Positions 4,936-50,995 of a stretch of DNA of 64,000 nt are shown one piece after another; the stretch's first letter is position 1, and every line of letters begins with the position of its first letter. Origin of the DNA: an uncultured Prevotellaceae bacterium. GTDB lineage: Bacteria > Bacteroidota > Bacteroidia > Bacteroidales > Bacteroidaceae. The notes beneath the pieces were generated by a model, which searched no databases, was not told the DNA's origin, and was given only the letters and a program-made list of their open reading frames with translations. The stretch spans positions 6,113 through 70,112 of the forward strand of contig ONCQ01000003.1 of assembly GCA_900316355.1 (NCBI GenBank), given 5' to 3'. The translations under genes and the position numbers were made by a program.

Positions 4936-4965
4936 TTTCTTAACAATTTTCATGCGCACACCGCA
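4936..4965 (+). repeat. Copy 3 of the 30-bp motif
   Basis: Identical core TTTCTTAACAATTTTCATGCGCACACCGC. It lies just beyond the hairpin that follows the minus-strand VirE gene. Confidence 0.7.
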
Positions 4966-7384: not shown

Positions 7385-7388
7385 TAAA
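7358..7388 (-). repeat. Copy 4 of the 30-bp motif, in inverted orientation, overlapping the HU-like stop codon
   Basis: GTGCGGTGTGCGCATGAAAAATGTTAATAAA. It encodes the last residues (VRCAHEKC*) of the HU-like gene. Confidence 0.65.
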
Positions 7389-7440
7389 TCTTTAATTTTA
7401 AAAAGTGGGGCAAAGCAGGTGGGCGTCTCGCAAGAAAATA

Positions 7441-9508: not shown

Positions 9509-11143
9509 TCAACCTCTCTTCCTCGGCGTGAGTTCCACCAGGGGAATCAGCATTTCCTCCATGGAGATGCCGCCGTGCTGGAAGGTGTCGCGGTAGTAGG
9601 AGACGTAGTAGTTGTAGTTGTTGGGGTAGGCGAAGAAGCTGTCTCCGCGGGCGAAGATGTAGCGCGTGGATAGGTTGGGGGAGGGCAGCAGCGCGCGCTG
9701 GGGATTAGTGATCTCGAAGACTTCCTTGGGGTTGTAGTCGAGGTTCTTGCCGAGCTTGTAGCGCAGGTTGGTGTTGGTGTTCTTGTCGCCCTTGACACGC
9801 ACGGGGGACTGACAGCGGATACTGCCGTGGTCGGTGGTCAGGATGATGCGGTAGTCGGAGGTGGCGAGGGCGCGGAAGAGGTCTGCGACGGCGCTGTGGC
9901 GGAACCAGCTGAGGGTGATGCTGCGGTAGGCGGCCTCGTTGCTGGCCAGCTCGCGCACCATGCGGCTCTCTGTGCGAGCGTGGCTGAGCATGTCGATGAA
10001 GTTGAGGACGCAGACATTGACATCGTATTTCTCCATCTGCGGCAACTTCTGCACGAGGCGCTCGGCGGCAGCAGAGTCGTTGACCTTGTTGTAGGTGAAG
10101 GTGTGTTGGCGGCGGTAGCGCTTGAAGAGGGTCTGTATGAGAGGCGCCTCGTTGAGGTTCTTGCCCTCCTCGCTGTCCTCATCGACCCAAAGGTCAGGGA
10201 ACATCTCGGCGATGATGTTAGGCATGAGGCCCGAGAAGATGGCGTTGCGCGCATACTGCGTGGCAGTGGGCAGGATAGAGCAGTAGAGAGCCTCGTCGAT
10301 ATGGAAGAGGTCGGCAATCTCGTTCATGAGGATGCGCCACTGGTCGTAGCGGAAGTTGTCGATGACGATGAGGAACACCTTCTCGCCGCTGTCCAGGAGG
10401 GGGAAGACGCGGCGCTTGAAGATGTCGGGGCTCATGATGGGCGGGCGCCCGGGCATCTCGGCATCGTTGATCCAGTCGAGGTAGTTACGCTCGATGAAGC
10501 GGGAGAACTGGTGGTTGGCCTCCTGCTTCTGCATGGCCAGCATCTCCTTCATGCCGCTGTCGGTCTCGGAGAGCTGCAGCTCCCAGGCCACGAGGCGGCG
10601 ATAGACCTCCATCCAGTCCTCGATGCTGCGGGCCTCGTCGATGAGCATGCCCATCTTGCCGAAGTCCTGCTGGTAGGCGGTCTGTGTCTGTTCGGTGACG
10701 ATTTCGCGCTGATGGATGTTCTTCTTCAGCGAGAGCAGTATCTGCGTGGGGTTGACGGGTTTGATGAGGTAGTCGGCAATCTTGCTGCCTATGGCCTGAT
10801 CCATGATGTTCTCCTCCTCGCTCTTGGTGACCATCACCACGGGTGTGGTGGGCGTCACCTCCTTGATGCGCTGCAGTGTCTCGAGTCCGCTGAGGCCGGG
10901 CATGTTCTCATCGAGGAGGATGAGGTCGTAGGTCTTCTCGCGGCAGCGGTCGATGGCGTCGAAGCCATTGGTGACGGTATCGACGGCATAGCCCTTCTTT
11001 TCCAGAAAGAGGATATGAGCCTTCAGCAGCTCTATCTCATCGTCGATCCAAAGTAAAGAAGCTATGGCAGACCCGGCAGACCCACCCCCGACCCCTCCCG
11101 TGAGGGAGGGGAGAGGCTGGCGCGATGTAGTTTTATTGGACAT
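9509..11143 (-). CDS. porX: Type IX secretion response regulator PorX (CheY receiver plus PglZ/alkaline-phosphatase-like domain)
   Basis: LWIDDEIELLKAHILFLEKKGY receiver N-terminus with a PglZ-like C-terminal domain. The first ~28 codons, including the ATG, are encoded by the palindromic repeat element. Confidence 0.75.
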   Translation of the reverse strand: MSNKTTSRQPLPSLTGGVGGGSAGSAIASLLWIDDEIELLKAHILFLEKKGYAVDTVTNGFDAIDRCREKTYDLILLDENMPGLSGLETLQRIKEVTPTTPVVMVTKSEEENIMDQAIGSKIADYLIKPVNPTQILLSLKKNIHQREIVTEQTQTAYQQDFGKMGMLIDEARSIEDWMEVYRRLVAWELQLSETDSGMKEMLAMQKQEANHQFSRFIERNYLDWINDAEMPGRPPIMSPDIFKRRVFPLLDSGEKVFLIVIDNFRYDQWRILMNEIADLFHIDEALYCSILPTATQYARNAIFSGLMPNIIAEMFPDLWVDEDSEEGKNLNEAPLIQTLFKRYRRQHTFTYNKVNDSAAAERLVQKLPQMEKYDVNVCVLNFIDMLSHARTESRMVRELASNEAAYRSITLSWFRHSAVADLFRALATSDYRIILTTDHGSIRCQSPVRVKGDKNTNTNLRYKLGKNLDYNPKEVFEITNPQRALLPSPNLSTRYIFARGDSFFAYPNNYNYYVSYYRDTFQHGGISMEEMLIPLVELTPRKRG

Positions 11144-11280
11144 AAGATTCTTCGTTATCTCGTTATTCCGTTATTTCGTTATCTCGTTATTTCGTTATTC
11201 CGTTATTTCGACTCCCCCTCTCCGCAGGCTCTCCCCTCCCTCACGGGAGGGGTTGGGGGTGGGTCTAATACATCCAATCT
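11064..11280. repeat. Large palindromic element: ~46-bp inverted arms (GACCCACCCCCGACCCCTCCCGTGAGGGAGGGGAG...) around a CGTTATTTCG tandem array
   Basis: The left arm (11075-11125) and right arm (11221-11268) are reverse complements. The tandem array spans 11148-11215. Confidence 0.85.
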
Positions 11281-14259: not shown

Positions 14260-14637
14260 TTATTCGGCACCCTCAAAATTCATTAAAAGCATAGCTTCGT
14301 CGCGCAATGCCTCCGGCAGTTCTATGCCCCGCAGTTGCAGGCTGCGAAGCCAGTCGCCTACCTCGCGGCGTAGGGTGGTGTAGAGCACATTGCGGAACTC
14401 CTCTGTCTCCTCCTCGCTGTAGTCGTCGCCGCGCCGCCCGCGGAAGCGGTCCAGCTCCTCATCGTCGAAGTATTCGATGGGCTCCTCTGCCGCCTTCATC
14501 AGCAGCTCTTTCTCGCAGACGGCATGCTGGCCGCAGCAGATGAAGGAAGACCCTTCCTCAGAAGACCCACCCCCCTGCCCCTCCCTTGTAGGGAGGGGAG
14601 TAGTCACTTTTGCTTGATCTGTATTACTCCTTTTCAT
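14260..14637 (-). CDS. Small acidic hypothetical protein; the true start is probably internal (MKAAEEP...)
   Basis: The ORF lies between aroA and the TPR gene on the same strand. Its N-terminal ~35 codons are encoded by a palindromic repeat. Confidence 0.3.
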   Translation of the reverse strand: MKRSNTDQAKVTTPLPTREGQGGGSSEEGSSFICCGQHAVCEKELLMKAAEEPIEYFDDEELDRFRGRRGDDYSEEETEEFRNVLYTTLRREVGDWLRSLQLRGIELPEALRDEAMLLMNFEGAE

Positions 14638-14690
14638 TTCTTGCAGGTATTTACTCCCCGCCCTACAAGGGAGGGGCAGGGAGGAGGGTC
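14564..14690. repeat. Palindromic element with CCCCTCCCTTGTAGGGAGGGG arms and a ~43-bp spacer
   Basis: Arms at 14564-14607 and 14651-14690 are reverse complements. Confidence 0.8.
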
Positions 14691-15997
14691 TTTTTCACCC
14701 CCGCCTTCTCCAACTCTTCCCAGAACGTGGGGTAGGACTTGGTGACTACTTCGGGGTTGTTGATGTCGATGCTTCCCAACACGAGGGCGGCGGGCGCAAA
14801 GGCCATCGCCATGCGGTGGTCCTCATAGGTGTCGATGGCGGTGCCGGGCAGCGGTTGCAGATAGGGAATCTCGCCGTAGGGCTGTGCCTCTGGTCCGGCC
14901 CATTGCATCACGCTGTCGCCTTCCACCTCCACGCGCACGCCCAGCTTTGCCAGCTCTGTCTGCAGCGCCGCGATGCGGTCGGTCTCCTTGATGCGGAGGC
15001 TTTGGAGTCCGGTGAAGCGGAACGCGATGCCCTTCATGGCGCAGGTCACCACCAGCGTCTGCGCCAAGTCGGGTGTCTTCGTGAAGTCCCACTCGAATCG
15101 TTTCGGCAGGCGGCCCCGTCGCATGAGCATCGCCCGCGGTTCATCATCGTCCGTCATCGGAGGCATACAGAACGAGGCCACCGACAGCTTCTTAAACATC
15201 TCCTGCACGGCGCTGTCACCCTGCAGGCTCTCACTGAAGAGTCCCTTGAGCTGGAAGACATTGTTGCGCTCGTCGCTGAGCAGGAGCAGTTCAAACCAAT
15301 AGGACGCGGCGCTCCAGTCCGCCTCTACCAGATAAGGCGTTGGCCTATAGGGTTGTGGCTCCACGGCGATGGTGCTCGGTCCCCTCCATTGTGCCTTGGC
15401 ACCATATTCTTTCATCATGGACAGCGTCATGTCAATGTAAGGACGGCTCACGATCTCGCCTTTCAGGCGGAGCGTCAGCCCCTCCTGTAGCTTCGGTGCG
15501 ATCATCAGCAGGGCTGAGATATACTGCGAGCTGACATCTCCCGCCAGCTCCACCTGGCCACCTCGCAGAACGGTGCCTGTGATGCGCAGGGGCGGGAAGC
15601 CCTCCTCGCCGACGTATTCTATCTCTGCCCCCAGGCTCCGCAACGCCTCCACCAGCACGCCGATGGGCCGGTGTTGCATACGTTCCGTTCCTGTGATGGT
15701 ATGCGTGCCGGGCGTCACCGCCAGCAACGCCGTTAGGAAGCGCATCGCCGTGCCGGCAGCTTTGACGTTTACGACAGGTGGCAACATACAGTCACTCCCC
15801 TCGCGCCGCTCCATTTCCAGCAGGAACAGCGCTTCCATCATCACGGTGGTGTCGTCGCAGTCCGACACGTTCCTCAGCAGACCCGGAATCCCGCCGCTCA
15901 GCGCGTTCAGCACCAGTGCTCGGTTGCTGATGCTCTTGCTGGCGGGCAGGCGCAAATCGCCGGTCAGATGTGTAGGTTTAGAGATTCGATAACTCAT
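14663..15997 (-). CDS. aroA: 3-phosphoshikimate 1-carboxyvinyltransferase (EPSP synthase)
   Basis: Starts MSYRISKPTHLTGDLRLPASKSISNRALVL. The longer ORF N-terminus (TRFELATPR...) is read-through across the tRNA-Pro gene and was rejected. Confidence 0.85.
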   Translation of the reverse strand: MSYRISKPTHLTGDLRLPASKSISNRALVLNALSGGIPGLLRNVSDCDDTTVMMEALFLLEMERREGSDCMLPPVVNVKAAGTAMRFLTALLAVTPGTHTITGTERMQHRPIGVLVEALRSLGAEIEYVGEEGFPPLRITGTVLRGGQVELAGDVSSQYISALLMIAPKLQEGLTLRLKGEIVSRPYIDMTLSMMKEYGAKAQWRGPSTIAVEPQPYRPTPYLVEADWSAASYWFELLLLSDERNNVFQLKGLFSESLQGDSAVQEMFKKLSVASFCMPPMTDDDEPRAMLMRRGRLPKRFEWDFTKTPDLAQTLVVTCAMKGIAFRFTGLQSLRIKETDRIAALQTELAKLGVRVEVEGDSVMQWAGPEAQPYGEIPYLQPLPGTAIDTYEDHRMAMAFAPAALVLGSIDINNPEVVTKSYPTFWEELEKAGVKKTLLPAPPL

Positions 15998-16263: not shown

Positions 16264-17043
16264 ATGTCCACTGTCATCTATCCTTCGCCTATCTTCGGGC
16301 CTGTACACAGCCGCCGCCTGGGCGTCTCACTCGGCATCAACCTGCTGCCTGCCGACGGCAAGGTCTGTTCGTTTGACTGTATCTATTGTGAATGCGGCCT
16401 CAACCGGGAGCGGCGCGCGAAGGAGAAGATGCCCACGCGCGAGGCGGTGCGCACGGCCTTGGAGGCGCGCCTGCAGCAGATGGCTGCCGAGGGACCTACG
16501 CCCGATGTGCTGACCTTTGCCGGCAATGGCGAGCCCACGTTGCATCCCGACTTCCCTGCTATCATTGAGGACACGCGCGTGCTGCGCGACCGTTACTGCC
16601 CCAAGGCGCGCATCAGTGTGCTGAGCAATGCCACGCAGATCCTGCGCCCCGATGTGTTCGCGGCGCTCTGTCGGGTGGATAACAACATCCTGAAATTAGA
16701 CACGGTGGACGCTGATTTCATTCGGCAGGTGGACTGTCCCACAGGGCATTATGCGGTGGAGGCGATTGTGGAAGGGCTCGCGCGCTTCCGCGGACATGCC
16801 ATCATCCAGACGATGTTCCTCACGGGAACCGATGCCCAAGGGAACACCGTGGACAACACGTCGGCGCACTATGTGACGCCCTGGCTGGAGGCGTTGCGCA
16901 TGATTGGTCCCGAGGCGGTGATGATCTACACCATAGACCGCGAGACGCCCGTCAGCACCCTGCGCAAAGCCGCGCCCGAAGTGTTGGATGCAATTGCAGA
17001 GCAGGTGCGCGCATTGGGCATCCGCTGCTCCGTGGCCTACTAA
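16264..17043 (+). CDS. Radical SAM protein (COG0731-like Fe-S oxidoreductase)
   Basis: CSFDCIYCEC cluster motif after a FGPVHSRRLGVSLGINLLP N-terminus. Confidence 0.7.
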   Translation: MSTVIYPSPIFGPVHSRRLGVSLGINLLPADGKVCSFDCIYCECGLNRERRAKEKMPTREAVRTALEARLQQMAAEGPTPDVLTFAGNGEPTLHPDFPAIIEDTRVLRDRYCPKARISVLSNATQILRPDVFAALCRVDNNILKLDTVDADFIRQVDCPTGHYAVEAIVEGLARFRGHAIIQTMFLTGTDAQGNTVDNTSAHYVTPWLEALRMIGPEAVMIYTIDRETPVSTLRKAAPEVLDAIAEQVRALGIRCSVAY

Positions 17044-17098
17044 CTCCTTGAACTTTTGAACTCCTTGAACTTTTGAACTCCTTGAACTCCTCAAACTC

Positions 17099-20452: not shown

Positions 20453-21037
20453 ATGAACAAGATTAGTTATGCTTTGGGCCTCGGTATCGGCCAGCAGCTG
20501 AAGAGCATGGGTATCTCCGACTTCAACGTGCAGGATTTCACGAAGAGCATCTGCGATGTGCTCAGCGATGGCGAACTGGCAATGACACACCGCGAGGCAC
20601 AGACCCTCCTCAACGAATTCTTTGACGCACAGGCTCGCGAGCAGGCCAAGGGCGCTATCGCCGAAGGCAAGGCCTTCCTCGAGGCCAATGCCAAGAAAGA
20701 AGGTGTCGTCACCACCAAGAGCGGACTCCAGTACCAGGTCCTCAAGGAAGGTACCGGTCGCAACCCCAAGGCCACAGACAAGGTGCGCTGCCACTACGAG
20801 GGCACGCTCATCAACGGCTCCGTCTTCGACAGCAGCTACCAGCGCGGCGAACCCGCTGACTTCCCCCTCAACGGCGTCATCCCCGGATGGACAGAGGGCG
20901 TGCAGCTCATGAAGGAAGGTGCCAAGTACCGCTTCTTCATCCCCTATCTCCTGGGCTATGGCGAGCGCGGTGCCGGCAGCAGCATACCGCCCTATGCCAC
21001 GCTCATCTTCGACGTGGAACTCATCAAGGTCCTCTGA
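20453..21037 (+). CDS. FKBP-type peptidyl-prolyl cis-trans isomerase
   Basis: FKBP domain (GTLINGSVFDSSY...IPGWTEG...YGERGAG...ATLIFDVELI). TACCTTTG box at 20413-20420. Confidence 0.8.
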   Translation: MNKISYALGLGIGQQLKSMGISDFNVQDFTKSICDVLSDGELAMTHREAQTLLNEFFDAQAREQAKGAIAEGKAFLEANAKKEGVVTTKSGLQYQVLKEGTGRNPKATDKVRCHYEGTLINGSVFDSSYQRGEPADFPLNGVIPGWTEGVQLMKEGAKYRFFIPYLLGYGERGAGSSIPPYATLIFDVELIKVL

Positions 21038-21101
21038 CCGCAGAGCCCACAGCTTCCATTCGTATTCATCATTAACAATTCAAATAAAACAAAAAAGCAA
21101 A

Positions 21102-21965
21102 ATGAAAAAGATTTCCGCAATCTTCGCAGTGGCTCTGGCTCTGGTCATGGTCTCCTGCAACGGTGGCCCCAGCGCCAACCTGAAAACCGATGTTGACACC
21201 CTCAGCTATGCCATCGGCATGAGCCAGACACAAGGTCTGAAGGAATATCTGTCCATGCGCATGAACGTGGACACCACCTATGTCGAGGAGTTCCTCAAGG
21301 GCTTCCGCGAGGGCATCAAGAGCACCGATGACAAGAAGAAGGCTGCCTACTATGCCGGTATCCAGATTGGTCAGCAGGTGAGCCAGGGCATGCTCCAGAA
21401 CATCAACCAGATGATCTTCGGCAACGACTCCACACAGACCGTCAACGAGGACAACGTCTATGCGGGCTTCATGGCTGCTGTTGCTGGCAATGACAAGGTG
21501 ATGAGCCTCGACTCTGCCAACGCTTTCGTGCAGACACGCATGGAGAGCATTCGCGAGAACGCTCGTGCCAAGGCTTTCGCTGATAACAAGGCTGCCGGCG
21601 AGGAGTACATGGCTAACATCGCCAAGAAGGAAGGCATCCAGGAACTCGGCAACGGCGTGTACTACGAAGTTGTCACCGAGGGCAACGGCGAGGTTGCTGC
21701 CGACACCTGCCGCGTGAAGGTACACTACGAGGGTAAGCTCATCGACGGCACCGTCTTCGACAGCAATCTCGAGAACGACCCCACCACCTTCCGTGCCAAT
21801 CAGGTCATCCCCGGCTTCAAGGCTGCACTCACCACGATGCCTGTCGGTTCCAAGTGGATTGTCTATATCCCCCAGGATCAGGCTTACGGCTCACAGGAGA
21901 TGGGCAACATCAAGCCTTTCAGTGCCCTGACCTTCACCATCGAACTGCTCGATATTGAGAAGTAA
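21102..21965 (+). CDS. FKBP-type peptidyl-prolyl cis-trans isomerase, secreted or lipoprotein form with an N-terminal chaperone-like domain
   Basis: Signal peptide with lipobox VSC and a C-terminal FKBP domain ([12 protein letters not shown]...TFTIELLDI). Confidence 0.8.
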   Translation: MKKISAIFAVALALVMVSCNGGPSANLKTDVDTLSYAIGMSQTQGLKEYLSMRMNVDTTYVEEFLKGFREGIKSTDDKKKAAYYAGIQIGQQVSQGMLQNINQMIFGNDSTQTVNEDNVYAGFMAAVAGNDKVMSLDSANAFVQTRMESIRENARAKAFADNKAAGEEYMANIAKKEGIQELGNGVYYEVVTEGNGEVAADTCRVKVHYEGKLIDGTVFDSNLENDPTTFRANQVIPGFKAALTTMPVGSKWIVYIPQDQAYGSQEMGNIKPFSALTFTIELLDIEK

Positions 21966-21980
21966 TAGTTATCTGCTATC

Positions 21981-22871
21981 ATGAAAGCAATACGTTTGGT
22001 TATCATCATTCTTGGTATGCTGGTGTGCGTCAACGCCAGTGCTGCCAAGAAGGTGAAGAAGAGCAAGAAAGCTGTCGTGGCAGAGAAGGTGGACACCATT
22101 CCCATGTCTGACTTCAGCTATGCCTTCGGTATCGCACAGACCAATGGTCTCATGGGCTATCTCGTGCAGCGTATGGGCGTAGATACCACCTATATCAGCC
22201 ATTTCCTCAGCGGCTTCGACTTCCCTGAGATGGACGAGGATGCAAAGAAGATGAAGGCTTTCATCGCCGGCAAGGAAATCCGCCAGCAGGTGGAGAACCA
22301 GATTGTTCCTCAGGTGAACAAGCAGATCAATGATAGCATCGATTTGCTCAATAAAGCCCGTTTCATCGAGGGATTCCGTGCATCCATTGCAGGTAACACT
22401 GCCATCACCATGGACAGCGCATCAGCCATCTCCACCAAGCAGATGGAATACTACCATAAGGTGAAGATGGAAGCGAAGTATGGCAAGAACCGCACCGACG
22501 GAGAGGCCTTCCTGGCTGCCAACGCCAAGAAGGACAGCGTGAAGACCACCGCCAGCGGACTGCAGTACAAGATTCTCTCGGCCGGCAACGGCGAGGTGCC
22601 CACCGCCACCGACAAGGTGAAGGTGAACTACGAAGGCACGCTCATCGATGGCACCGTCTTCGACAGCAGCTACAAGCGCAACCAGCCTGCCACCTTCGCC
22701 TGCAATCAGGTCATCAAGGGATGGACGGAAGCGCTCACCATGATGCCCGTGGGCTCCAAGTGGGTGATTTACGTGCCCCAGAACCTCGGCTATGGCGAGC
22801 GTGAGGCTGGCAAGATACCTCCCTTCTCCACGCTCATCTTTACCGTGGAATTGCTGGAGATTGTCAAGTAA
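21981..22871 (+). CDS. FKBP-type peptidyl-prolyl cis-trans isomerase; third tandem paralogue
   Basis: Signal peptide, then FKBP domain ([13 protein letters not shown]...[10 protein letters not shown]). Confidence 0.8.
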
Positions 22872-23531: not shown

Positions 23532-23589
23532 GAATTGAACATGGAGAGTTAAACTTTTGAACTTCTTAAACTTTTGAACTCTTAAACCC

Positions 23590-25389
23590 TTGAACTCCTG
23601 TTCTGCTTTTGATTGGAAAGGGCGCTATGAGGCGTTGCACGACTACTTCCCCAGCACGTACTACACACCCGTGATAGGCATCACGGGTAACTTCGGTGAG
23701 AAGGGTTGCGAGCTGGCAGAGGGCTACTATGAGAGCATCCTGCGGGCGGGGGCCACCCCCGTGGTGCTGCCGCCCACAGAAGATGCCGATGCGCTGTGCA
23801 CGATGCTCGACAGTATCGATGCCCTGGTGCTCTCGGGCGGCGGCGATATCAACCCGCTCTTCGCCGGCGAGGAACCTGTGCCACAGCTCCATAGCATCAA
23901 TCCCAAGCGCGACCTGTGCGAGCTGCTGCTCGTGCGCCTGGCCTACGACCGCCAGCTGCCCATGCTCGGCATCTGCCGCGGCATACAGGTGTTGGCCACC
24001 GCCCTCGACGGCAGCGTGTGGCAGGACATCGCCTCGCAGTTCAATCCCCCCGCGCTCATCAAGCACAGTCAGGATCTGGAGCGCAGCCGTGCCTCGCACA
24101 CCGTGGCGGTGGCCGAAGGGTCGCTGCTACAGCACATTATGGGTGTTGATACACTGTCTGTCAACAGCTTCCATCACCAGGCTGTGCGCGAGGCTGGCCC
24201 CCACCTGCGCGTCTGCGCCACAGCACCCGACGGCGTCATCGAAGCCGTGGAATCCACCGAGCATAAGAGCATCATTGGCGTGCAGTGGCACCCCGAATGC
24301 TTCTGTCTGGGTGGCGATGCGCGCATGATGCCGCTCTTCCGATGGCTGGCCGACGAGGCGGCCAACTACCGCGAGGCGCGCCGCATACACAGCCGCATCA
24401 TCACCCTCGACAGCCATTGCGACACGCCGATGTTCTTCGATCAGGACATCCACTTCGACCAGCGCGACCCCAAGATACTCGTGGACTTGCATAAGATGCG
24501 CGAGGGAGGTTTGGATGCCAGCACCATGGTGGCCTACATCCCCCAGGGACCGCTCACTGATGAAGGGCGCGCCGCTGCCACCGCCTATGCCGACAGCCAG
24601 CTCTCCCGCGTGGAGAAGATGGTCGAGGCGAATGCGGCAGCCGTGGGCATGGCCTATGATGTCAAGGACCTCCATCGCCTGAAGGCTGAGGGGCGCAAGG
24701 CCATCATGCTCGGCATCGAGAACGGCTATGCCATCGGTCGCGACATCCATCTGTTGGAGCGTTTCCAGAAGAAGCACGGCATCGTCTATATGACGCTCTG
24801 CCACAACGGCAACAACGATATCTGCGGTTCCGCACGTCCGCGTGAGGGTGAGCAGCTGATGGGCGTCACAGACTTCGGTGCCGACGTCATTCGTGAGATG
24901 AACCGCCTCGGCATCCTCGTGGACCTCTCCCACGGCAGCGAGCGCAGCTTCTACGATGCCCTGGACATCAGCACCAAGCCCATCGTGTGCTCCCACTCCT
25001 CATGCCGCGCCCTCTGCGACCATCCCCGCAACCTCACCGATGACCAGCTGCGCGCCCTCGCCGCCAAAGGCGGTGTGGCACAGGTCACCTTCTACAGCGG
25101 TTTCCTGCGCACCGACGGGCAGGCCAGTATCCTGGATGCAGTGGCCCATCTCAACCACATGGTGCAGGTGATGGGCATCGAGCATGTGGGCATCGGCACT
25201 GACTTCGACGGCGACGGCGGTGTCCCCGGCCTCGCCTCTGCCGCAGAACTCATCAACTTCACCCGCCGCCTGTTGCGCGAGCACTACAGCGAGGCGGACC
25301 TCCGCCTTATCTGGGGCGGCAACTGGATGCGCTGTGTAAGTGAAATGCCCCCGAGCCCCCTAAAGGGGAGCGTAGGGAGTGAAAAGTGA
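23590..25389 (+). CDS. Fusion protein: class-I glutamine amidotransferase-like (C26, PuuD-like) domain plus M19 membrane dipeptidase domain
   Basis: GATase catalytic region (GICRGIQVL...WHPE) followed by a renal-dipeptidase-family region (LCHNGNNDI...DLSHGSE...GIGTDFDGDGG). The last ~15 residues (EMPPSPLKGSVGSEK*) are encoded by a repeat element. Confidence 0.7.
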   Translation: MNSCSAFDWKGRYEALHDYFPSTYYTPVIGITGNFGEKGCELAEGYYESILRAGATPVVLPPTEDADALCTMLDSIDALVLSGGGDINPLFAGEEPVPQLHSINPKRDLCELLLVRLAYDRQLPMLGICRGIQVLATALDGSVWQDIASQFNPPALIKHSQDLERSRASHTVAVAEGSLLQHIMGVDTLSVNSFHHQAVREAGPHLRVCATAPDGVIEAVESTEHKSIIGVQWHPECFCLGGDARMMPLFRWLADEAANYREARRIHSRIITLDSHCDTPMFFDQDIHFDQRDPKILVDLHKMREGGLDASTMVAYIPQGPLTDEGRAAATAYADSQLSRVEKMVEANAAAVGMAYDVKDLHRLKAEGRKAIMLGIENGYAIGRDIHLLERFQKKHGIVYMTLCHNGNNDICGSARPREGEQLMGVTDFGADVIREMNRLGILVDLSHGSERSFYDALDISTKPIVCSHSSCRALCDHPRNLTDDQLRALAAKGGVAQVTFYSGFLRTDGQASILDAVAHLNHMVQVMGIEHVGIGTDFDGDGGVPGLASAAELINFTRRLLREHYSEADLRLIWGGNWMRCVSEMPPSPLKGSVGSEK

Positions 25390-25440
25390 ATAATGAAGAA
25401 TGAAAAATGAAAAGTGAAGAATGAAAAGTGAAAAATTAGA
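25342..25440. repeat. Palindromic core GAAATGCCCCCGAGCCCCCTAAAGGGGAGCGTAGGGAG plus a GAAAAGTGAA-type tandem array
   Basis: The core recurs at 41170, 45623 and 31230 (rc). The tandem array spans 25380-25440. Confidence 0.85.
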
Positions 25441-26564: not shown

Positions 26565-27077
26565 ATGCAAGATTATAATGATACTACGCGCCAGTCCTCC
26601 CCCTCTTCGACAGAGAAGGGGGTGGGGCGTGAGTCCATCGACTCCCTCCAAGACGAGATTATCGAGGAATTCAACGACTTCGATGACTGGATGGACAAAT
26701 ACCAGCTCCTCATCGACCTCGGCAACGACCAACAGCCGCTGCCCGAGAGCGCCAAGACGGAGCAGAACCTCATCGACGGCTGTCAGAGCCGCGTATGGCT
26801 CACAGCCACGCTGACGTCCGACGGCCTCGTGCACTTCGAGGCGGAGAGCGACGCCCTCATCGTGAAGGGCATCGTCACGCTCCTCATCCGCGTCCTCAGC
26901 GACCACACGCCGCAGGAGATTCTCGATGCCGACCTCTACTTCATCGAGCGCATCGGCCTCCGCGAACACCTCTCACCCACCCGCAGCAATGGCCTCCTCG
27001 CCATGCTCAAGCAGATGAAAATGTATGCCCTCGTTTACAACGAAGTGAAAAATGATGGAGTGAAAAGTGAAAAATGA
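26565..27077 (+). CDS. sufE: SufE-like cysteine desulfuration / Fe-S assembly protein
   Basis: SufE domain with the conserved Cys in QLIDGCQSRVWL. The C-terminal ~12 residues are encoded by a tandem-repeat array. Confidence 0.7.
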   Translation: MQDYNDTTRQSSPSSTEKGVGRESIDSLQDEIIEEFNDFDDWMDKYQLLIDLGNDQQPLPESAKTEQNLIDGCQSRVWLTATLTSDGLVHFEAESDALIVKGIVTLLIRVLSDHTPQEILDADLYFIERIGLREHLSPTRSNGLLAMLKQMKMYALVYNEVKNDGVKSEK

Positions 27078-27094
27078 AAAGTGAATAATGAAAG

Positions 27095-31010: not shown

Positions 31011-31019
31011 GCCTTTGGC

Positions 31020-31300
31020 TGTTGGCTTTTGGCTTTTGGCTTTTGGCCTTTGGCACTCATCATTAGTAATTTTTATTTTTCACTTATCACTTATCACTCA
31101 TCACTCATCATTGACCTTCGGTCGAGCCTGCTCACGCTCGGGAAAGTTCAAGCAAGCTTGACTCTCCTCTCGCTTAATCGCAGCCTTCATCACTCGTCAT
31201 TCGTCATTCATCATTATTATTTTTCACTTTTCCCTCCCTACGCTCCCCTTTAGGGGGCTCGGGGGCATTTGAACTCTTGAACTCTTGAACTTTTTGAACT
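31020..31300. repeat. Composite repeat cluster: GGCTTTTGGC and CACTTATCA tandem arrays, the 76-bp core identical to the tsaE insert, an inverted PPSPLKG core, and a TTGAACTCTTGAAC array
   Basis: Direct reading. 31113-31188 equals 9071-9146. 31230-31270 is the reverse complement of the 25342 core. Confidence 0.85.
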
Positions 31301-34661: not shown

Positions 34662-34755
34662 AGGCCAGAGGCCTGATTCATGGTTCAGGATTCAGGATTC
34701 ATGGTTCAGGATTCAGGATTCATGGTTTCAAGTTTCATGATTCGTCATTAACTTC

Positions 34756-37804: not shown

Positions 37805-38521
37805 ATGAAGATAGCACTCATCGGCTACGGTAAAATGGGCCACATGATAGAGCAGATAGCTCTGGAGCGCGGACACGACATCGTGTGCCGCATCGACATC
37901 GATAACCCTCAGGACTTCGAGAGCGCGGCGTTCCGCAGCGCTGACGTGGCGATAGAGTTCACGGCTCCCACGGTGGCCTACGGCAACGTGCAGCGGGCGT
38001 TTGCGGCGGGCGTGAAGGTGGTGTCGGGCAGCACGGGGTGGTTTGCACAGCATGAGGCTGAGGTGCGCCGGCAGTGTGAGGCGGAGGGCAGGACGCTGTT
38101 CTGGGCCTCGAACTTCTCGGTCGGCGTGGCCATCTTCGGCGCCGTGAACCGCTACCTGGCACGCATCATGAATGGGTTCCCACAGTATGACGTGGAGATG
38201 GAGGAGACGCACCATGTGCATAAGCTGGACCACCCGAGCGGCACGGCGATCACGCTGGCAGAGGATATCGTCAGCGAACTGGACCGCAAGGAGGCGTGGG
38301 CCGAGGATACGACAGATCCGAAGCTGCTGCGCATCGACAACATCCGACGGGGTGAGGTGCCGGGGATTCACACGGTGCGCTACGACAGCGAGGCGGACCT
38401 GATAACAATCACGCATGATGCGCACTCGCGCAAGGGCTTCGCACTGGGGGCAGTGCTGGCGGCGGAATATACGGCCGAGCACAGCGGACTGCTGAGCATG
38501 GGGGATTTGTTTTCATTTTAA
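37805..38521 (+). CDS. dapB: 4-hydroxy-tetrahydrodipicolinate reductase
   Basis: MKIALIGYGKMG NAD-binding N-terminus and the EETHHVHKLDHPSGTA catalytic region. Confidence 0.85.
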   Translation: MKIALIGYGKMGHMIEQIALERGHDIVCRIDIDNPQDFESAAFRSADVAIEFTAPTVAYGNVQRAFAAGVKVVSGSTGWFAQHEAEVRRQCEAEGRTLFWASNFSVGVAIFGAVNRYLARIMNGFPQYDVEMEETHHVHKLDHPSGTAITLAEDIVSELDRKEAWAEDTTDPKLLRIDNIRRGEVPGIHTVRYDSEADLITITHDAHSRKGFALGAVLAAEYTAEHSGLLSMGDLFSF

Positions 38522-38670
38522 GGAGTTAAGAAGTTAAGGAGTTAAGAAGTTAAGGAGTTAAGGAGTTAAGACGAATGCTTTGCCACTGATAATACTTTGC
38601 ACGAGTAATGTCTTAACTTCTGCCCGAAGGGCGAGCGAAGCGATAACTCCTTGAACTCCTTAACTCCCCC
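38520..38670. repeat. GGAGTTAAG / TTGAACTCCTTAAC tandem arrays flanking a GCCCGAAGGGC hairpin
   Basis: Direct reading of the dapB-lepB intergenic region. Confidence 0.7.
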
Positions 38671-40149: not shown

Positions 40150-40235
40150 GGCCCCCTGTGGTCCCCCAAGGGGGACAATTGAGAATTGAAAATTGAAAAT
40201 TGAGAATTGGGGAATGGTAAGAATTGAGGAATCGT
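40150..40235. repeat. GGCCCCCTGTGGTCCCCCAAGGGGGAC palindrome plus a TTGAGAATTGAAAATTG tandem array
   Basis: Direct reading. It overlaps the ORF-track N-terminus of ung. Confidence 0.7.
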
Positions 40236-40873
40236 GGGGGCGGCAGTTGGCCGCAGAGTTTGAGCAGGCTTACTTCCAGGAGCTGGCGGCTTTCGTGCGG
40301 CAGGAATATGCCGCAGGCCCTTGCTATCCCCCTGGCTCCAAGATCTTCAATGCCTTCAACAGCACACCCTTCGACCGTGTGAAGGTGGTCATCCTGGGAC
40401 AAGACCCCTACCATGAGCCCGGACAAGCCATGGGCCTCTCCTTCTCCGTCCCCGAGGGTGTGCAGCTGCCGCCATCGCTCCGCAATATCTACGCCGAGAT
40501 CCAGCAGGAGCTGGGCACCATGCCGCCCGCCTCGGGCGACCTCACGCGCTGGGCGGCACAGGGCGTGCTGCTGCTGAACGCCACCCTCACCGTGCGCCGC
40601 GGACAGGCGGGCTCGCATCAGGGCCATGGCTGGGAGACGTTCACGGATGCGGCCATACGGGCGCTGGCGCAGCAGCGCGAGCATCTGGTGTTCCTGCTCT
40701 GGGGCTCCTATGCGGCGAAAAAGGCCCAATTCATCGACGCACAACGGCACCTGGTGCTCCGCTCAGCCCATCCCTCCCCCCTCTCCGCCTACCGCGGCTT
40801 CTTCGGCAACCACCACTTCCAACTCTGCAACGACTACCTCGTCCAGCACGGACAAAGTCCAATTGAATGGTGA
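40214..40873 (+). CDS. ung: Uracil-DNA glycosylase
   Basis: GQDPYH catalytic motif and HPSPLSAYRGFFG. The start was moved to the Met after the repeat array. Confidence 0.85.
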   Translation: MVRIEESWGRQLAAEFEQAYFQELAAFVRQEYAAGPCYPPGSKIFNAFNSTPFDRVKVVILGQDPYHEPGQAMGLSFSVPEGVQLPPSLRNIYAEIQQELGTMPPASGDLTRWAAQGVLLLNATLTVRRGQAGSHQGHGWETFTDAAIRALAQQREHLVFLLWGSYAAKKAQFIDAQRHLVLRSAHPSPLSAYRGFFGNHHFQLCNDYLVQHGQSPIEW

Positions 40874-41565
40874 ACCAGATTCCTATCTTAGAAGTCGGCG
40901 GTGTGCTGATCAGCACTCAGATCCTCACCGAACGTTTCTGCTGCGACCTCGAAGCCTGCGGCGGCGCCTGCTGCGTGGAGGGCGATGCTGGCGCACCGGT
41001 CACGCTGGATGAAGTCGGCGAGATAGAGGCGGCGCTGGATGCGGCGTGGCCGTATATGTCGGCCACGGCACAGAGCGTGGTGGATAAACAGGGCGTTGCC
41101 TACACGGATGTGGAGGGCGACTTGGTCACGAGTATCGTGAACGGCAAAGATTGTGTGTTTACGTTCTACGAAATGCCCCCGAGCCCCCTAAAGGGGAGCG
41201 TAAATAGCCAAGAGCCAAGAGCTAAGAGCCAAGCGCCAAGTGCCAACAGCCAAGAGCCAGCAGCCAAAACCTGTTGTCTGTGTGCGCTGGAGGCGGCATG
41301 CAGGGCGGGGAAGAGTAGGTTCATGAAGCCCATCTCATGCGCGCTCTATCCCATCCGCGAGAAGCGTTTCGGCGGTGGCCTGGTGGGCCTCAACTATCAC
41401 CGCTGGGCCATTTGCGAGGGAGCGCGCAAGCGGGGACAGGAGCTGGACCTGCCGCTCTACCGTTTCCTGCGCGAGCCGCTGATACGGCGCTTCGGCGAGG
41501 CGTGGTACAAAGAGTTGTGTGAGGTGGCGGAGGAACTGAAAAGAGCGGAGCGAGACCGCCCATAA
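40867..41565 (+). CDS. Cysteine-rich conserved protein (DUF3109-like) carrying an in-frame repeat-element insertion
   Basis: CCDLEACGGACC...CCLCALE...CALYPIR cysteine pattern. Residues EMPPSPLKGSVNSQEPRAKSQAPSANSQEPAAKT are encoded by the palindromic core plus an AGCCAAGAGCC tandem array. Confidence 0.5.
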   Translation: MVNQIPILEVGGVLISTQILTERFCCDLEACGGACCVEGDAGAPVTLDEVGEIEAALDAAWPYMSATAQSVVDKQGVAYTDVEGDLVTSIVNGKDCVFTFYEMPPSPLKGSVNSQEPRAKSQAPSANSQEPAAKTCCLCALEAACRAGKSRFMKPISCALYPIREKRFGGGLVGLNYHRWAICEGARKRGQELDLPLYRFLREPLIRRFGEAWYKELCEVAEELKRAERDRP

Positions 41566-42335: not shown

Positions 42336-43850
42336 TTACTTATTCAGTGTCCATGTGGCACCGTCCTTGCCGTCCTTGATTTCGAAGCCGAGGGCGTTGA
42401 GTTCGTTGCGGATCTTGTCGCTCGTGGCCCAGTCCTTATTGGCTTTGGCGATGGCGCGCTGTTCGAGGAGCATATCGACGACATGGCCGAAGGCCTCCTC
42501 GCGGGCACTGGCCCCGCTCCCCGCTCCGCTCGTTGAGAGTTGAGCGTTGAGCGTTGAGAGTCCGAGGATGTCCTCGGCGAAGAGATGCATGGCAGAGGAG
42601 AGTTCCTCGAAGTCGGCAGCACTGATGGTGCCCTTGTGGTCAAGGACGCGGTTGATGGTGCTGCATGCCTCGAAGAGGTGGCTGATGACGGTGGGGGAGG
42701 CGAGGTCGTCGTTCATGGCGTCGTAGCACTTCTGGCGCAGCTCGCTGGCCACCTTGTGCGTCTCGGCATCGCTCTCGGCGGCGGGTGTGATGCGCTTGAG
42801 GTCGGCGATGGCGTTCATCAGGCGCTGCAAGCCCTTCTCGGCAGCCTGCAGGGCTTCGTTGGAGAAGTCCACGGTGCTGCGGTAGTGCGCCTGCAGGATG
42901 AAGAAGCGGATGGTCATGGGCGAGTAGGCCTGCGAGAGCTTCTCGTGGGAGCCGGTGAAGAACTCGTTGAGGGTGATGAAGTTGCCCAGCGATTTGCCCA
43001 TCTTCTGGCCGCCGATGGTGACCATGTTGCAGTGCATCCAGTACTTCACCATGTCGTCGCCCTGGCTGGCCACGGCCTGCGCTATCTCGCACTCATGGTG
43101 CGGGAAGACGAGGTCCATGCCGCCACCGTGGATGTCGAAGTGGTTGCCCAGGTACTTGCGGCCCATGGCCGTGCACTCGCAGTGCCAGCCGGGGAAGCCG
43201 TTGCTCCAGGGTGAGGGCCAGCGCATGATATGTTCGGGCTGTGCGCACTTCCAGAGGGCGAAATCGACTTGGTTGTGCTTCTCGCTCTGGCCGTCGAGCT
43301 CGCGGCTGTTGTTGATGACGTCGGTGAGGTTGCGGCCGCTGAGTTTGCCGTACTGATGCTTTTCGTTGTATTTCTCCACGTCGAAATAGACGCTGCCCTG
43401 GCTCTCGTAGGCGTAGCCGTTGTTGAGGATCTCCTTGACGAGTTCTATCTGCTCGATGATATGTCCTGTGGCGTGGGGCTCGATGCTGGGCGGCAGGCAG
43501 TTGAGGGCGCGCATGGCATCGTGGAAGCGGTTGGTGTAGTACTGTGCCACCTCCATGGGTTCCAGCTGTTCCAGGCGTGCCTTCTTGGCTATCTTATCCT
43601 CGCCCTCGTCGGCATCGTGTTCGAGGTGTCCCACGTCGGTGATGTTGCGCACATAGCGCACCTTGTAGCCGATGTGCTGCAGGTAGCGGAACAGGAGGTC
43701 GAAGGTGATGGCGGGACGGGCGTGGCCCAGATGCGCATCGCCATAGACTGTGGGGCCGCAGACATACATGCCCACGCGGCCCGGAACGACGGGGCGAAAC
43801 AGCTCTTTACTGCGACTTAACGTATTATATATCAATAATGGTTGGTTCAT
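42336..43850 (-). CDS. cysS: Cysteine--tRNA ligase
   Basis: HIGH-type motif [15 protein letters not shown] and KMSKS (KMGKSLGN). The C-terminal region contains a CTCAACG heptamer x4 and an AGCGGGG-type low-complexity stretch (42520-42575). Confidence 0.9.
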
Positions 43851-45606: not shown

Positions 45607-45622
45607 GAGAGTTTATTTTTTT

Positions 45623-45700
45623 AAGCCCCCGAGCCCCCTGAAGGGGAGCGTAGGGAGGGAAGAGGGAGGAGGGACAATGACGAATGCCAATGCCAAGAGC
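45623..45700. repeat. Copy of the GCCCCCGAGCCCCCTGAAGGGGAGCGTAGGGAGGG core plus a GGGAGG / GCCAATGCCAAG array
   Basis: Direct reading, upstream of purE. Confidence 0.8.
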
Positions 45701-49638: not shown

Positions 49639-49712
49639 CGCTCCAGGATGGGCTTGAACCAACGACCCCCTGATTAACAGTCAGGTGCTCTAACCAACTG
49701 AGCTACTGAAGC
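49639..49712 (-). tRNA. tRNA-Asn (anticodon GUU), copy 1
   Basis: Hand fold. Acceptor GCTTCAG/CTGGAGC, D-arm GCTC-AGTTGGTTA-GAGC, anticodon arm CCTGA-CTGTTAA-TCAGG, T-arm with one mismatch, discriminator G. Confidence 0.8.
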
Positions 49713-49764: not shown

Positions 49765-49838
49765 CGCTCCAGGATGGGCTTGAACCAACGACCCCCTGAT
49801 TAACAGTCAGGTGCTCTAACCAACTGAGCTACTGAAGC
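49765..49838 (-). tRNA. tRNA-Asn (anticodon GUU), copy 2, identical to copy 1
   Basis: Same 74-nt sequence repeated 126 bp upstream. Confidence 0.8.
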
Positions 49839-50924: not shown

Positions 50925-50995
50925 TATAACGGAATTACGGAACTACGGAATTACGGAATTACGGAACTAACGAAATTACGTTATTACGAAAAAGC
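50925..50995. repeat. GGAATTACGGAACTACG tandem array
   Basis: Direct reading, in the intergenic region downstream of the PfkB gene. Confidence 0.7.

Follow-up and report, generated by a model that had tools for sequence, protein, structure and literature searches.

Four copies of a short, G/C-rich repeat lie within a 20-kb part of the window, by which we mean the whole 64-kb stretch of DNA analysed here. Copy A (25345-25377, plus strand; 33-nt unit ATGCCCCCGAGCCCCCTAAAGGGGAGCGTAGGG, core 25347-25372) encodes residues 586-596 (MPPSPLKGSVG) of a gene that Pfam identifies as a fusion of Peptidase C26 and M19 dipeptidase (23590-25389, plus strand). Copy C (41173-41205, plus strand; 33-nt unit ATGCCCCCGAGCCCCCTAAAGGGGAGCGTAAAT) is read in frame as residues 103-113 (MPPSPLKGSVN) in a loop of a DUF3109 protein, whose gene occupies 40867-41565 on the plus strand (Pfam PF11307). 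Copy B (31234-31271, minus strand) is intergenic, 37 nt upstream of the start of a flotillin-like gene (31308), and is flanked by TTGAACTC and TCATTCA-type arrays. Copy D (45620-45657, plus strand), also intergenic, separates a divergent purE-like gene (start 45606, minus strand) from a gene at 45820 (plus strand); it carries the loop variant TGAA and is followed by a GAGGGAA array.

All four share a 26-nt core, GCCCCCGAGCCCCCT[A/G]AAGGGGAGCG, at 25347, 31241 (minus strand), 41175 and 45625, the last with one mismatch (A to G in the loop), against zero expected occurrences and zero matches in shuffled sequences. A 38-bp core had been placed by the first-pass annotation at 25342 and 41170, which is confirmed, and at 31230 (inverted) and 45623, which are a few bases off; the 38-mer matches run from 25342 to 25379 (plus strand, no mismatch), from 31234 to 31271 (minus strand, one) and from 41170 to 41207 (plus strand, three, all within the last 5 bases). 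The unit of about 33 nt consists of three blocks, GCCCCC and, after a 2-nt spacer, GCCCCC-TAAA-GGGGAGC, giving the full order GCCCCC-GA-GCCCCC-TAAA-GGGGAGC (G-rich strand, CGCTCCCCTTTAGGGGGCTCGGGGGC). What was first described as a palindrome is indeed a G/C hairpin, but an imperfect one with a second C-run ahead of it. It folds modestly better than shuffled sequences (z -1.1 to -2.8), and an Rfam scan of the window returned four tRNAs only, with no match to the repeat.

Each copy abuts a different tandem array of 7-nt units, as had been noticed at the outset. Such arrays are a general feature of the intergenic DNA here; they are neighbours of the element and no part of it. The window also holds hairpins of other families: a solo copy of GGCCCCCTGTGGTCCCCCAAGGGGGA (40150-40175, plus strand), whose block plan is that of the ends of DUF559 lineage 3 (see below), and two inverted doublets of a further family (AGACCCACCCCCGACCCCTCCCGTGAGGGAGGGGAG) at 11078-11266, with an octamer array between its arms, and at 14562-14692.

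Repeat copies within genes

In the DUF3109 gene, the reading frame runs FTFY-EMPPSPLKGSVNSQEPRAKSQAPSANSQEPAAKT-CCLCALE, and the Pfam match is split into two stretches, the first of which ends at residue 102 (profile position 96 of 181). Copy C adds 11 codons to this hypervariable loop, in a region predicted to be disordered. The first-pass annotation had attributed about 35 extra residues to the element; the insert is real, but only 11 residues come from the repeat, and the remainder stems from an (AGCCAAG)n heptamer array (41206-41267, plus strand, 8.9 copies) that is translated in frame as NSQEPRAKSQAPSANSQEPAAK and is common to a sister lineage without the repeat. Comparison with orthologues bears out the insertion: PPSPLKGSV is missing from DUF3109 proteins at 84-88% identity, in which a different heptamer array occupies the site, and a short orthologue has a loop of 13 residues.

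The dipeptidase fusion has a full-length M19 domain by residue 584 and ends in ...RCVSEMPPSPLKGSVGSEK. Its last 14 residues (MPPSPLKGSVGSEK) correspond to copy A plus the first array unit, and copy A takes the place of the native C-terminus; orthologues end in ...LRVMEEVQxx, without the repeat peptide. The earlier claim that the element supplies the last 15 residues and the stop codon holds for the existence of the tail, but the repeat accounts for residues 586-596 alone, and the stop TGA (25387-25389) belongs to the adjoining (TGAAAAG/TGAAAAA)n array (25380-25436, plus strand). Two proteins of the same 90% cluster, P0366 and P0374, with a handful of differences from the window protein, terminate in ..RCVSEK, compared with ..RCVSE[MPPSPLKGSVGSE]K in the window, and are exactly 13 codons shorter. 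We infer an empty allele that would be 39 nt shorter in DNA. The corresponding indel region (25339-25383, plus strand) consists of the 33-nt unit bracketed by an AGTGAA direct repeat (25339-25344 and 25378-25383). This 6-nt repeat flanks copy A only; neither copies B-D nor the cassettes described below show an evident target duplication. The junction between dipeptidase and M28 genes always holds some hairpin family, and the families differ between sister lineages.

At the level of open reading frames and their comparison, a dispersed repeat thus appears to be read in frame in the DUF3109 gene and as the dipeptidase tail, and the frame giving EMPPSPLKGSV translates as proposed. The bias towards the PPSPLKG frame that had been suggested as a test did not emerge: Pfam-confirmed genes use three frames, and a fourth is seen in ORFs whose coding status is uncertain. 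Specifically, frame S2 is used in the DUF3109 loop, frame S0 in a DegT aminotransferase (APEPPKGER, 7 loci) and at a DUF6250 C-terminus, and frame A0 in a cupin loop, while a CapF-like linker contains one S0 and one A0 copy. The fourth frame, A1 (TLPFRGLGG), falls in an FkbO/RidA-like ORF, where coding status is uncertain. Predicted insert-derived peptides include EMPPSPLKGSVNSQEPR, ...CVSEMPPSPLK and FVAPEPPKGER.

The continuity of the reading frames could by itself suggest that PPSPLKGSV is a functional motif or that the copies are assembly artefacts, both of which we consider vanishingly improbable. Orthologues do without the peptide, other genes use the same DNA in four frames, and the insert is predicted to be disordered; the insert-bearing DUF3109 protein, furthermore, occurs on 23 contigs whose samples come from several sequencing projects, and the insert-bearing dipeptidase on more than 14 contigs from many samples. 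Judged from the sequences, the repeat-encoded peptide is a passenger. The 33-nt unit equals 11 codons and is open in four of six frames, and copies at permissive sites would therefore stay in frame as passenger peptide; the disordered DUF3109 loop and the last codons of the dipeptidase would be such sites.

Distribution of the repeat

Rumen Prevotellaceae carry the repeat widely: about 155 retrieved loci contain more than 300 copies. The exact core was found at 34 loci in about 17 species-level Prevotellaceae/Bacteroidales metagenome-assembled genomes (MAGs), and at least 120 metagenome stretches carry more than 300 copies. The unit conserved across 88 non-redundant solo contexts reads aaa-GCCCCC..GAGCG-T(a/t)GGG, and solo copies are near-identical across loci. 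Orthologous positions hold the repeat in different species (L010/L012/L027, L009/L017 and L024/L026). Tandem copies with a period of 28-32 nt, inverted doublets and clusters are also present. Positions 7 and 25 of the unit co-vary (GC 165, AT 121, GT 4, AC 1); wobble intermediates, at 4 GT versus 1 AC, are too few to serve as proof of pairing.

Several other readings of the repeat were discarded. A CRISPR-like arrangement does not fit the tandem copies, in which the entire period is the repeat itself, and a G-quadruplex fits only copies followed by G-rich arrays (copy D, L009/L017) and is no property of the unit. A terminator is contradicted by the lack of a T-tract and by a strand that, by eye, is inconsistent relative to genes. 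A phage vehicle is unsupported, as viral contigs gave one core match and no relative of DUF559 lineage 1.

A nuclease cassette with the repeat at its ends

In related DNA on other contigs, the identical 26-nt core forms the downstream, inverted end of a cassette of about 0.45 kb. The upstream end is a two-base variant (A7/T25), often present in one to five tandem copies. Between the ends lies a gene for a predicted 129-residue DUF559 endonuclease (Vsr-like PD-(D/E)xK; Pfam DUF559, E=1.6e-32), and the same ORF is enclosed by 23 of 24 pairs in plus-then-minus orientation spaced 413-496 nt apart. Relatives of the protein include PDB 3hrl (2e-18) and the homing endonuclease I-Bth0305I (3r3p, 1.5e-3). 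In 22 cassettes, the host stop codon is followed by A/T-type copies and then by ATGAAGGGTAGTGT..., and the gene ends with AAC GCT CCC CTT TAG inside the inverted G/C-type copy. Further DUF559 lineages, at 52%, 62% and 57% identity, each have inverted C-run hairpin ends of their own, those of lineages 3 and 4 being GCCCCCC-N5-GCCCCC-GA-GGGGGC and GCCCCCC-TG-GCCCCCC-AAAT-GGGGGGG. The gene bracketed by inverted copies is thus DUF559 in all four lineages, and the end variant is lineage-specific.

Cassettes were seen at five kinds of site: the fnlA|capF and capF|fnlC junctions and the inside of capF, gltX|kdtA, the space between POR subunit genes, and upstream of ispF. The fnlA|capF junction exists in both filled and empty versions. 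Deletion derivatives keep the ends and the last 45 nt or so of the DUF559 gene. The DUF559 gene has a pN/pS of 0.12, and in 66 of 66 pairs it shows less divergence than the capF gene beside it (nucleotide identity 0.867 for DUF559 and 0.724 for capF). One DUF559 lineage lies in frame inside a host gene; in the CapF-DUF559 fusion ORF, Pfam finds Epimerase, a split Polysacc_synt_C and DUF559 only, with no Hint/intein domain. An intein or group I intron was accordingly set aside, Pfam showing no intein domain and Rfam only tRNAs in the window. The DUF559 gene itself is absent from the 64-kb window, where searches with three lineages as queries at E up to 50 returned noise. In an exact-match scan of genomes, solo-rich MAGs (SIG144, 14 loci) showed no cassette, and cassette-bearing MAGs showed copies only in the polysaccharide operon; incomplete MAGs or the restriction to exact matches may account for this pattern.

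Interpretation and alternatives

The observations to be accounted for are a repeat family, its in-frame insertions, their strain polymorphism and a common cassette architecture in four nuclease lineages. As the core is identical to the downstream end of the cassette and a two-base variant forms the upstream one, we take the repeat to be the terminal repeat of a selfish nuclease cassette, of which the window copies are probably gene-less solo ends. The cassette would persist also as deletion derivatives, inverted doublets and solos, and solo units would be gained or lost as discrete indels, as at copy A (33 nt plus the 6-nt direct repeat). We further infer mobilisation by the DUF559 nuclease, which may recognise the folded ends and nick there, after which host repair or recombination could copy or remove units. 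PD-(D/E)xK nucleases alone do not transpose DNA. The link between the window and the cassette is one of sequence identity with cassettes on other contigs, the 39-nt indel may be an insertion or slippage between repeats, and copies at orthologous sites across species could reflect selection for a structural role.

It is unlikely that the solos were never mobilised and are relics of cassettes decayed by internal deletion, subject later only to slippage and gene conversion. This would explain the decay series from full cassette via ends with the last 45 nt or so of the gene to doublet and solo, including a doublet spaced 42 nt with a spacer similar to the start of the gene; the 28-32-nt tandem periods suggest slippage, and the occupation of the dipeptidase|M28 junction by different hairpin families in sister lineages also fits. 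On the other hand, the 88 distinct solo contexts, with four copies in 20 kb of the window, face cassettes in five kinds of site only, solo sequences are near-identical across loci, and a clean 33+6-nt indel between near-identical strains resembles a unit event and not the end of gene decay. A host-selected structural motif at gene boundaries, such as a hairpin that stabilises or processes mRNA, a protein-binding site or triplex-forming DNA, with accidental coding copies, could be argued from the retention at orthologous positions in different species, the co-variation of positions 7 and 25, the modest folding excess over shuffles and the constant presence of some hairpin family at the dipeptidase|M28 junction. 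We nonetheless hold it improbable: strand and position relative to genes are inconsistent (window copies and listed flanks, judged by eye without a formal tally), no T-tract follows the hairpin, Rfam gives no match, and positions 7 and 25 co-vary because the two sequence types descend as left and right cassette ends. For the related BoxC/PIT repeats, published assays showed neither promoter nor terminator activity (PMC4666352).

There is similarly little chance that the repeat is a classical REP/REPIN mobilised in trans by a RAYT (an IS200/IS605-type HUH tyrosine transposase), with incidental proximity to DUF559. The short imperfect palindrome, the G-T-A-G after the hairpin in about half of solos, and the inverted doublets and tandem clusters resembling BIMEs/REPINs would suit such an origin; intragenic REPs are known (PMC3733652), and Bacteroidetes contain RAYT subclasses (PMC6006769). 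However, 1.2 Mb of element-rich DNA contains no ORF with HUH and Y motifs, on the GTAG-reading strand the tag follows the hairpin on its 3' side, the mirror image of the canonical 5'-GTAG-hairpin, and the bracketed gene is DUF559 in every one of the four lineages, each with its own end variant.

Comparison with known systems

In-frame palindromes are already known from Rickettsia and some REPs, and the window feature extends them to rumen Bacteroidota. The Rickettsia RPEs and intragenic MITEs (PMC10969869) likewise place palindromes in frame in unrelated housekeeping genes, yielding passenger peptides that are apparently tolerated at permissive positions, and here too the inserts occupy such sites and orthologues lack them. 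RPEs differ in being about 100-150 bp long and mainly read in one conserved frame, compared with 33 nt and four frames here. We know of no nuclease gene linked to RPEs. As in MITEs, the repeats have terminal inverted repeats in common with a gene-bearing element, and deletion derivatives keep the ends. Many Prevotella proteins have odd low-complexity loops and tails that the repeat accounts for, and knowing this helps annotation and the judgement of gene calls in MAGs. The tandem arrays recall the intergenic TAACTGA-type heptamer arrays reported in some Bacteroidetes (PMC4679880), which also lie by start codons and have stops in all frames one way while being translatable the other way; in the present DNA, however, nearly every spacer has a different 7-8-nt unit. 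We found no paper on heptamer arrays or palindromic repeats in Prevotella.

Free-standing Vsr-like (EDxHD) homing genes, I-Bth0305I and 'fractured genes' (PMC3239194, PMC2677866) similarly feature a small Vsr-fold gene that lies within conserved genes or between them, separated by a few bases, is polymorphic in its presence or absence and is younger than its flanks. DUF559 falls in the same PD-(D/E)xK clade as I-Bth0305I (PMC3424549). It matches a family with proven homing, and the fnlA|capF junction shows the same filled/empty pattern and a gene younger than its flanks; the relation is nevertheless distant (E=1.5e-3), and DUF559 cassettes contain no intron or intein. To our knowledge, homing endonuclease genes do not carry terminal inverted hairpin repeats or dispersed solo repeats. 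DUF559 is a very large family to which hardly any biology has been assigned, and none of the 25 papers that name it deals with repeats.

With the BoxC/PIT/TM repeats known from Enterobacteria and Cyanobacteria (PIT, potential intrastrand triplex; Holder et al. 2015, PMC4666352, where Bacteroidota are not mentioned), the repeat has in common a G/C-rich unit of about 35 nt with two like runs and a complementary run, highly conserved copies without orientation bias at strain-variable loci, and two sequence types that pair in inverted configuration. It has their three blocks (Y-Y-R / Y-R-R) with short loops, a likeness to triplexes that rests on the block plan, as the folding tools modelled hairpins only. 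Holder et al. require a stem of at least 6 matched triads; family 1 has 5-6, with shorter blocks and an A bulge or tandem A.G mismatch, and lineages 3 and 4 have 6-7. The sequences are unrelated (TMECO is CCCCTCGCCCCTC-TG-GGGAGAGGG-TTA-GGGTGAGGGG), so that the block plan alone is common, and TM repeats are reported as strictly intergenic and without a mobile gene, whereas many copies here are in frame and bracket a nuclease gene. The DUF559 gene ycjD of E. coli K-12 has its stop codon within a C-run/G-run hairpin and is followed, about 150 nt downstream, by a BoxC copy. Of E. coli genomes, 62% carry ycjD, in the sapF-fabI spacer, and 38% lack it. A search for remnants of the ycjD 3' end gave at most two places per E. 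coli genome, both at the ycjD locus, and thus no sign of an origin of other BoxC copies from ycjD.

BoxC/PIT/TM repeats were reportedly treated by Hoyne and Maher in 2000; the origin and spread of BoxC/PIT have been unexplained since the 1990s, and published BoxC/PIT work reports no associated mobile gene. The larger point of our findings is that DUF559 genes are consistently bracketed by lineage-matched triplex-type inverted repeats, which suggests, as far as sequence can tell, a nuclease-linked mini mobile element so far undescribed. More tentatively, and with the odds somewhat against it, three-block repeats of the BoxC/PIT type could be the terminal repeats of an unrecognised class of minimal selfish DUF559 cassettes in Bacteroidota and possibly, given ycjD and BoxC, in Enterobacteria. 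A cassette of about 0.45 kb with one DUF559 gene between lineage-specific inverted ends would enter between or inside conserved genes, decay to doublets and solos and thereby seed passenger peptides. If the association is functional, both DUF559 and the BoxC/PIT repeats would gain a testable function.

Such a system would resemble the REPtrons of REP/REPIN-RAYT elements on a different nuclease fold. Both are imperfect multicopy palindromes of 20-40 nt that form solos, inverted doublets and clusters, with copies inside genes and at gene ends, and in both, one small nuclease gene lies between inverted copies, its lineage co-varying with the repeat family. They differ in the extra C-run, in the 5' GTAG/CGTC tag of REPs, in place of which G-T-A-G stands 3' of the hairpin (A after T in 56% of solos), and in the flanked gene, which encodes DUF559, a PD-(D/E)xK hydrolase, and not a cognate RAYT, the HUH tyrosine transposase. 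If functional, a hydrolytic Vsr-fold nuclease would thus join the few enzymes that maintain populations of miniature repeats in bacteria.

Repeat family in and beyond the window

The 26-nt core GCCCCCGAGCCCCCT[A/G]AAGGGGAGCG matches the window at 25347, 31241 (minus strand), 41175 and 45625, the last with loop TGAA, and dinucleotide shuffles yielded no match. The multi-copy repeat is confirmed, and its flanks agree with the first-pass annotation. The longer 38-mer is exact at 25342-25379 (plus strand), has one mismatch at 31234-31271 (minus) and three at 41170-41207 (plus), all within the last five bases, and flanking direct repeats are present only at the copy in the dipeptidase gene. The annotation's overall reading, an in-frame dispersed repeat, is supported with its details corrected, and the feature belongs to the class of in-frame palindromic repeats.

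Beyond the window, the core was located at 34 loci in about 17 Prevotellaceae/Bacteroidales MAGs of rumen or gut origin (exact scan, one genome per species; 14 loci in MAG SIG144) and in at least 120 metagenome stretches, and more than 300 copies were gathered in total. Solo copies, which stand without a gene of their own, occupy 88 non-redundant contexts with the conserved unit aaa-GCCCCCGAGCCCCCTAAAGGGGAGCG-T(a/t)GGG; copies also occur in tandem, with periods of 28, 30, 31 or 32 nt, and as inverted pairs. With a search pattern permitting all four combinations at positions 7 and 25, two types were predominant; the counts were 165 G7/C25, 121 A7/T25, 4 G7/T25 and 1 A7/C25. The predicted hairpin is modest (z-scores -1.1 to -2.8), and Rfam held no match to the repeat.

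The window has further repeats of its own. Many intergenic spacers hold tandem arrays whose 7- or 8-nt unit differs from spacer to spacer (including TGAAAAG, TTCGTTAT, TTGAACTC, GATTCAG, TTAAGGAG and ACGGAATT), and in many of them a stop codon falls in all three frames of one orientation; examples lie at 9144-9188, 11151-11210, 17042-17098, 23549-23597, 25380-25436, 27043-27093, 31014-31054, 31080-31110, 31269-31300, 34675-34743, 38518-38570, 40177-40209, 42532-42561 and 50929-50988. The roughly 40-nt motif AATTTAAATATTTCTTAACAATTTTCATGCGCACACCGCA (780-819, 1995-2027, 4926-4965 and inverted at 7358-7398; 88-91% match) may be a common promoter or regulatory region, and diverged direct repeats at 20793-22729 (103-170 nt, 72-77% identity, spacing about 900 nt) are probably repeated protein domains or paralogous genes. 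Two identical minus-strand tRNA genes lie 126 nt apart (49639-49712 and 49765-49838).

In-frame copies in host genes

The ORF at 23590-25389 encodes a 599-residue fusion of Peptidase_C26 and Peptidase_M19, with the M19 domain complete at residue 584. Orthologues usually end in IWGGNFLRVMEEVQxx, and window-clade dipeptidases in NW[ML]RC followed by differing tails. Two 586-residue proteins of the same 90% cluster (P0366 and P0374), which differ from the window protein at only a handful of positions, end in RCVSEK, where the window protein reads RCVSE[MPPSPLKGSVGSE]K. Judged from these proteins, the alleles would differ by 39 nt, namely the 33-nt unit at 25345-25377 plus one AGTGAA direct repeat. 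The orthologue termini and these shorter proteins uphold the claim that the repeat provides the C-terminal tail. Three sister lineages have different C-run/G-run hairpins where the dipeptidase gene meets the M28 peptidase gene that follows it. Arrays of the 7- or 8-nt kinds give dipeptidase orthologues tails ending in KSEK, and a 664-residue cluster member (P0373) reads through the array after the repeat (…SVGKKKKKIRKSNES…) and beyond the usual stop, which looks like a frame shifted by array-length change.

In the DUF3109 gene (40867-41565) the Pfam match is split in two, its first stretch reaching residue 102 (position 96 of 181 in the profile). Across 31 aligned orthologues the stretch bounded by CVFT[FY]Y and CCLCALE ranges in length between about 10 and 60 residues, and PPSPLKGSV is found only in the window's own lineage (members at least 97% identical). 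The window DNA reads TTCTACGAA, ATGCCCCCGAGCCCCCTAAAGGGGAGCGTAAAT, (AGCCAAG)n, and a sister lineage (L035) TTCTACGAA, (CAAGTTY/CAGGTTC)n, (AGCCAAG)n; in a short orthologue (L036) the loop spans 13 codons. The repeat's share of the insert is thus 11 codons, and the remainder is a heptamer array that the sister lineage has without the repeat. The insertion of some 35 residues is in frame as annotated, but not all of them derive from the repeat. An alignment-based AlphaFold model, of modest quality with a mean pLDDT of 65, gives residues 88-136 pLDDT values under 50 and no secondary structure. The insert-bearing protein occurs on 23 contigs from samples of several sequencing projects, which rules out an assembly artefact. 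Arrays of similar kind (SKFQVSG, NSRTPELP and PSPINHH repeats) occupy this variable loop in other lineages.

Four of the six frames through the repeat unit are open. Elsewhere, its Pfam-confirmed in-frame hosts are a DegT-type aminotransferase at seven loci (FEKDLEEF[IV]-APEPPKGER-...VVALS.GTAA), a CapF-like epimerase-cupin protein whose linker carries an inverted doublet (APYPPKGEI...HSPSGGLGA) and whose cupin domain holds another copy (RSPSGGSGA), and a DUF6250 protein with a C-terminal copy; DUF6055 and FkbO/RidA-like ORFs are less certain. Since different genes read the repeat in different frames, there is no bias toward the PPSPLKG frame, and the peptide PPSPLKGSV cannot be the selected entity. 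One DegT gene with the APEPPKGER insert (L063, 3365-4804) has, near residue 300, an extra doublet from a different hairpin family, likewise in frame (PNPSPKGEG...HPSLEGG).

Repeats as the ends of a nuclease cassette

Neighbouring copies in plus-then-minus order, spaced 413-496 nt, form 24 pairs, and 23 of these enclose the same 129-codon ORF, a DUF559 protein (Pfam, E=1.6e-32) related to PDB 3hrl (2e-18) and, more remotely, to I-Bth0305I, a homing endonuclease (3r3p, 1.5e-3). In the common plan derived from 22 cassettes, the upstream host gene's stop codon is followed by one to five tandem A7/T25 copies, a spacer of about 12 nt and the gene start ATGAAGGGTAGTGT..., which resembles the repeat's right half; the gene ends ...AAC GCT CCC CTT TAG, its last codons and stop lying within an inverted G7/C25 copy, and about 10 nt later the next host gene starts. 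The hosts are fnlA/capE-, capF- and fnlC/capG-like genes of polysaccharide operons, some contigs bearing two cassettes; one fnlA|capF junction (L145) is without the element. Purifying selection acts on the DUF559 gene (pN/pS 0.12), which in 66 of 66 pairwise comparisons has diverged less than the initial 330 nt of its neighbour capF (nucleotide identity 0.867 vs 0.724; pS 0.44 vs 0.76). Together with the deletion derivatives described below, this pattern fits a unit whose movement between lineages postdates the divergence of its flanks.

Three further DUF559 lineages have analogous brackets, and in all four both ends belong to one family, inverted, with an extra C-run facing outward; host ORF calls often read through cassette ends. 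Lineage 2 (52% identity) sits in frame within the cupin-coding part of the CapF-like gene, with one to four copies of AGCCCCCTCCCAACCTCCCCCTCAAGGGGAGAA on one side and an inverted relative on the other. In L088 (477-2045, minus strand), L111 and L130, host gene, nested DUF559 gene and repeats form continuous ORFs of 584-623 codons that lack an intein domain; at this site L033 has a solo repeat and L003 is empty. Lineage 3 (62%) separates gltX from kdtA, or POR subunit genes from one another, leaving gaps of 1-5 nt, and is bracketed by GCCCCCC-N5-[G/T]CCCCC-GA-GGGGG[C/A] and its inverse; lineage 4 (57%) lies upstream of ispF between GCCCCCC-TG-GCCCCCC-AAAT-GGGGGGG-type copies.

Related hairpins also occur in the window. 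A solo hairpin GGCCCCCTGTGGTCCCCCAAGGGGGA at 40150-40175, between S26 peptidase and UDG genes and followed by an (AATTGAA)n array, is closely like the lineage 3 ends. The family AGACCCACCCCCGACCCCTCCCGTGAGGGAGGGGAG, with the C-run and hairpin plan of the main repeat, forms two inverted doublets (11078-11266 and 14562-14692), one with an octamer array between its arms, and in L042-L044 related variants stand at the dipeptidase|M28 junction. Outside the window, the cassette-bearing polysaccharide operons also contain small wedged-in genes of PDDEXK_3 (GxxExxY-type) nuclease fold (L171, 3529-3981; L088, downstream of capF). Such operons may serve more widely as insertion sites for small, selfish nuclease genes.

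Origin of the window copies

The window copies carry the exact G7/C25 cassette end sequence, and on this sequence evidence they are probably solo derivatives of the DUF559 cassette family. That the nuclease drives mobilisation of the repeats is a more tentative proposal, under which solos would be mobilised in trans. The 64-kb window contains no DUF559 gene; in a species-level scan, solo-rich MAGs had no cassette, and MAGs with a cassette had repeat copies only in the polysaccharide operon. Solos may instead be relics of decayed cassettes: derivatives retaining both ends together with the gene's final ~45 nt are present in L092/L093/L112, L070, L104 and L111, and in a doublet with 42-nt spacing the spacer resembles the first DUF559 codons. 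They may also be retained for a structural role.

Comparison with known systems

The BoxC/PIT/TM "intrastrand triplex" repeats share the block plan (C-run, C-run, G-run; Y-R-R on the other strand). In E. coli these are highly conserved 37-nt elements of two types, paired in inverted configuration, which mark unstable loci and were reported without a link to mobile genes (PMC4666352). In E. coli K-12 (NC_000913, 1351200-1351830) ycjD, a DUF559 gene, has its stop codon within a C-run/G-run hairpin; a diverged duplicate of the ycjD 3' end and, some 150 nt downstream of the gene, a BoxC/TMECO copy come next, both inside ~200 nt. Of 5426 complete E. coli genomes, 3378 (62%) contain the ycjD 3' segment used as query. 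This neighbourhood hints at a parallel to the DUF559–repeat association, a link not found in the literature searched and one that merits experimental follow-up. RPEs offer a precedent for palindromic inserts in frame, and Vsr-like homing endonucleases for selfish action of a DUF559-type fold. REP-RAYT systems have their logic in common with the DUF559 cassettes, whereas enzyme and tag differ. The cassette link makes the window repeat a variant of REP/BoxC-type systems.
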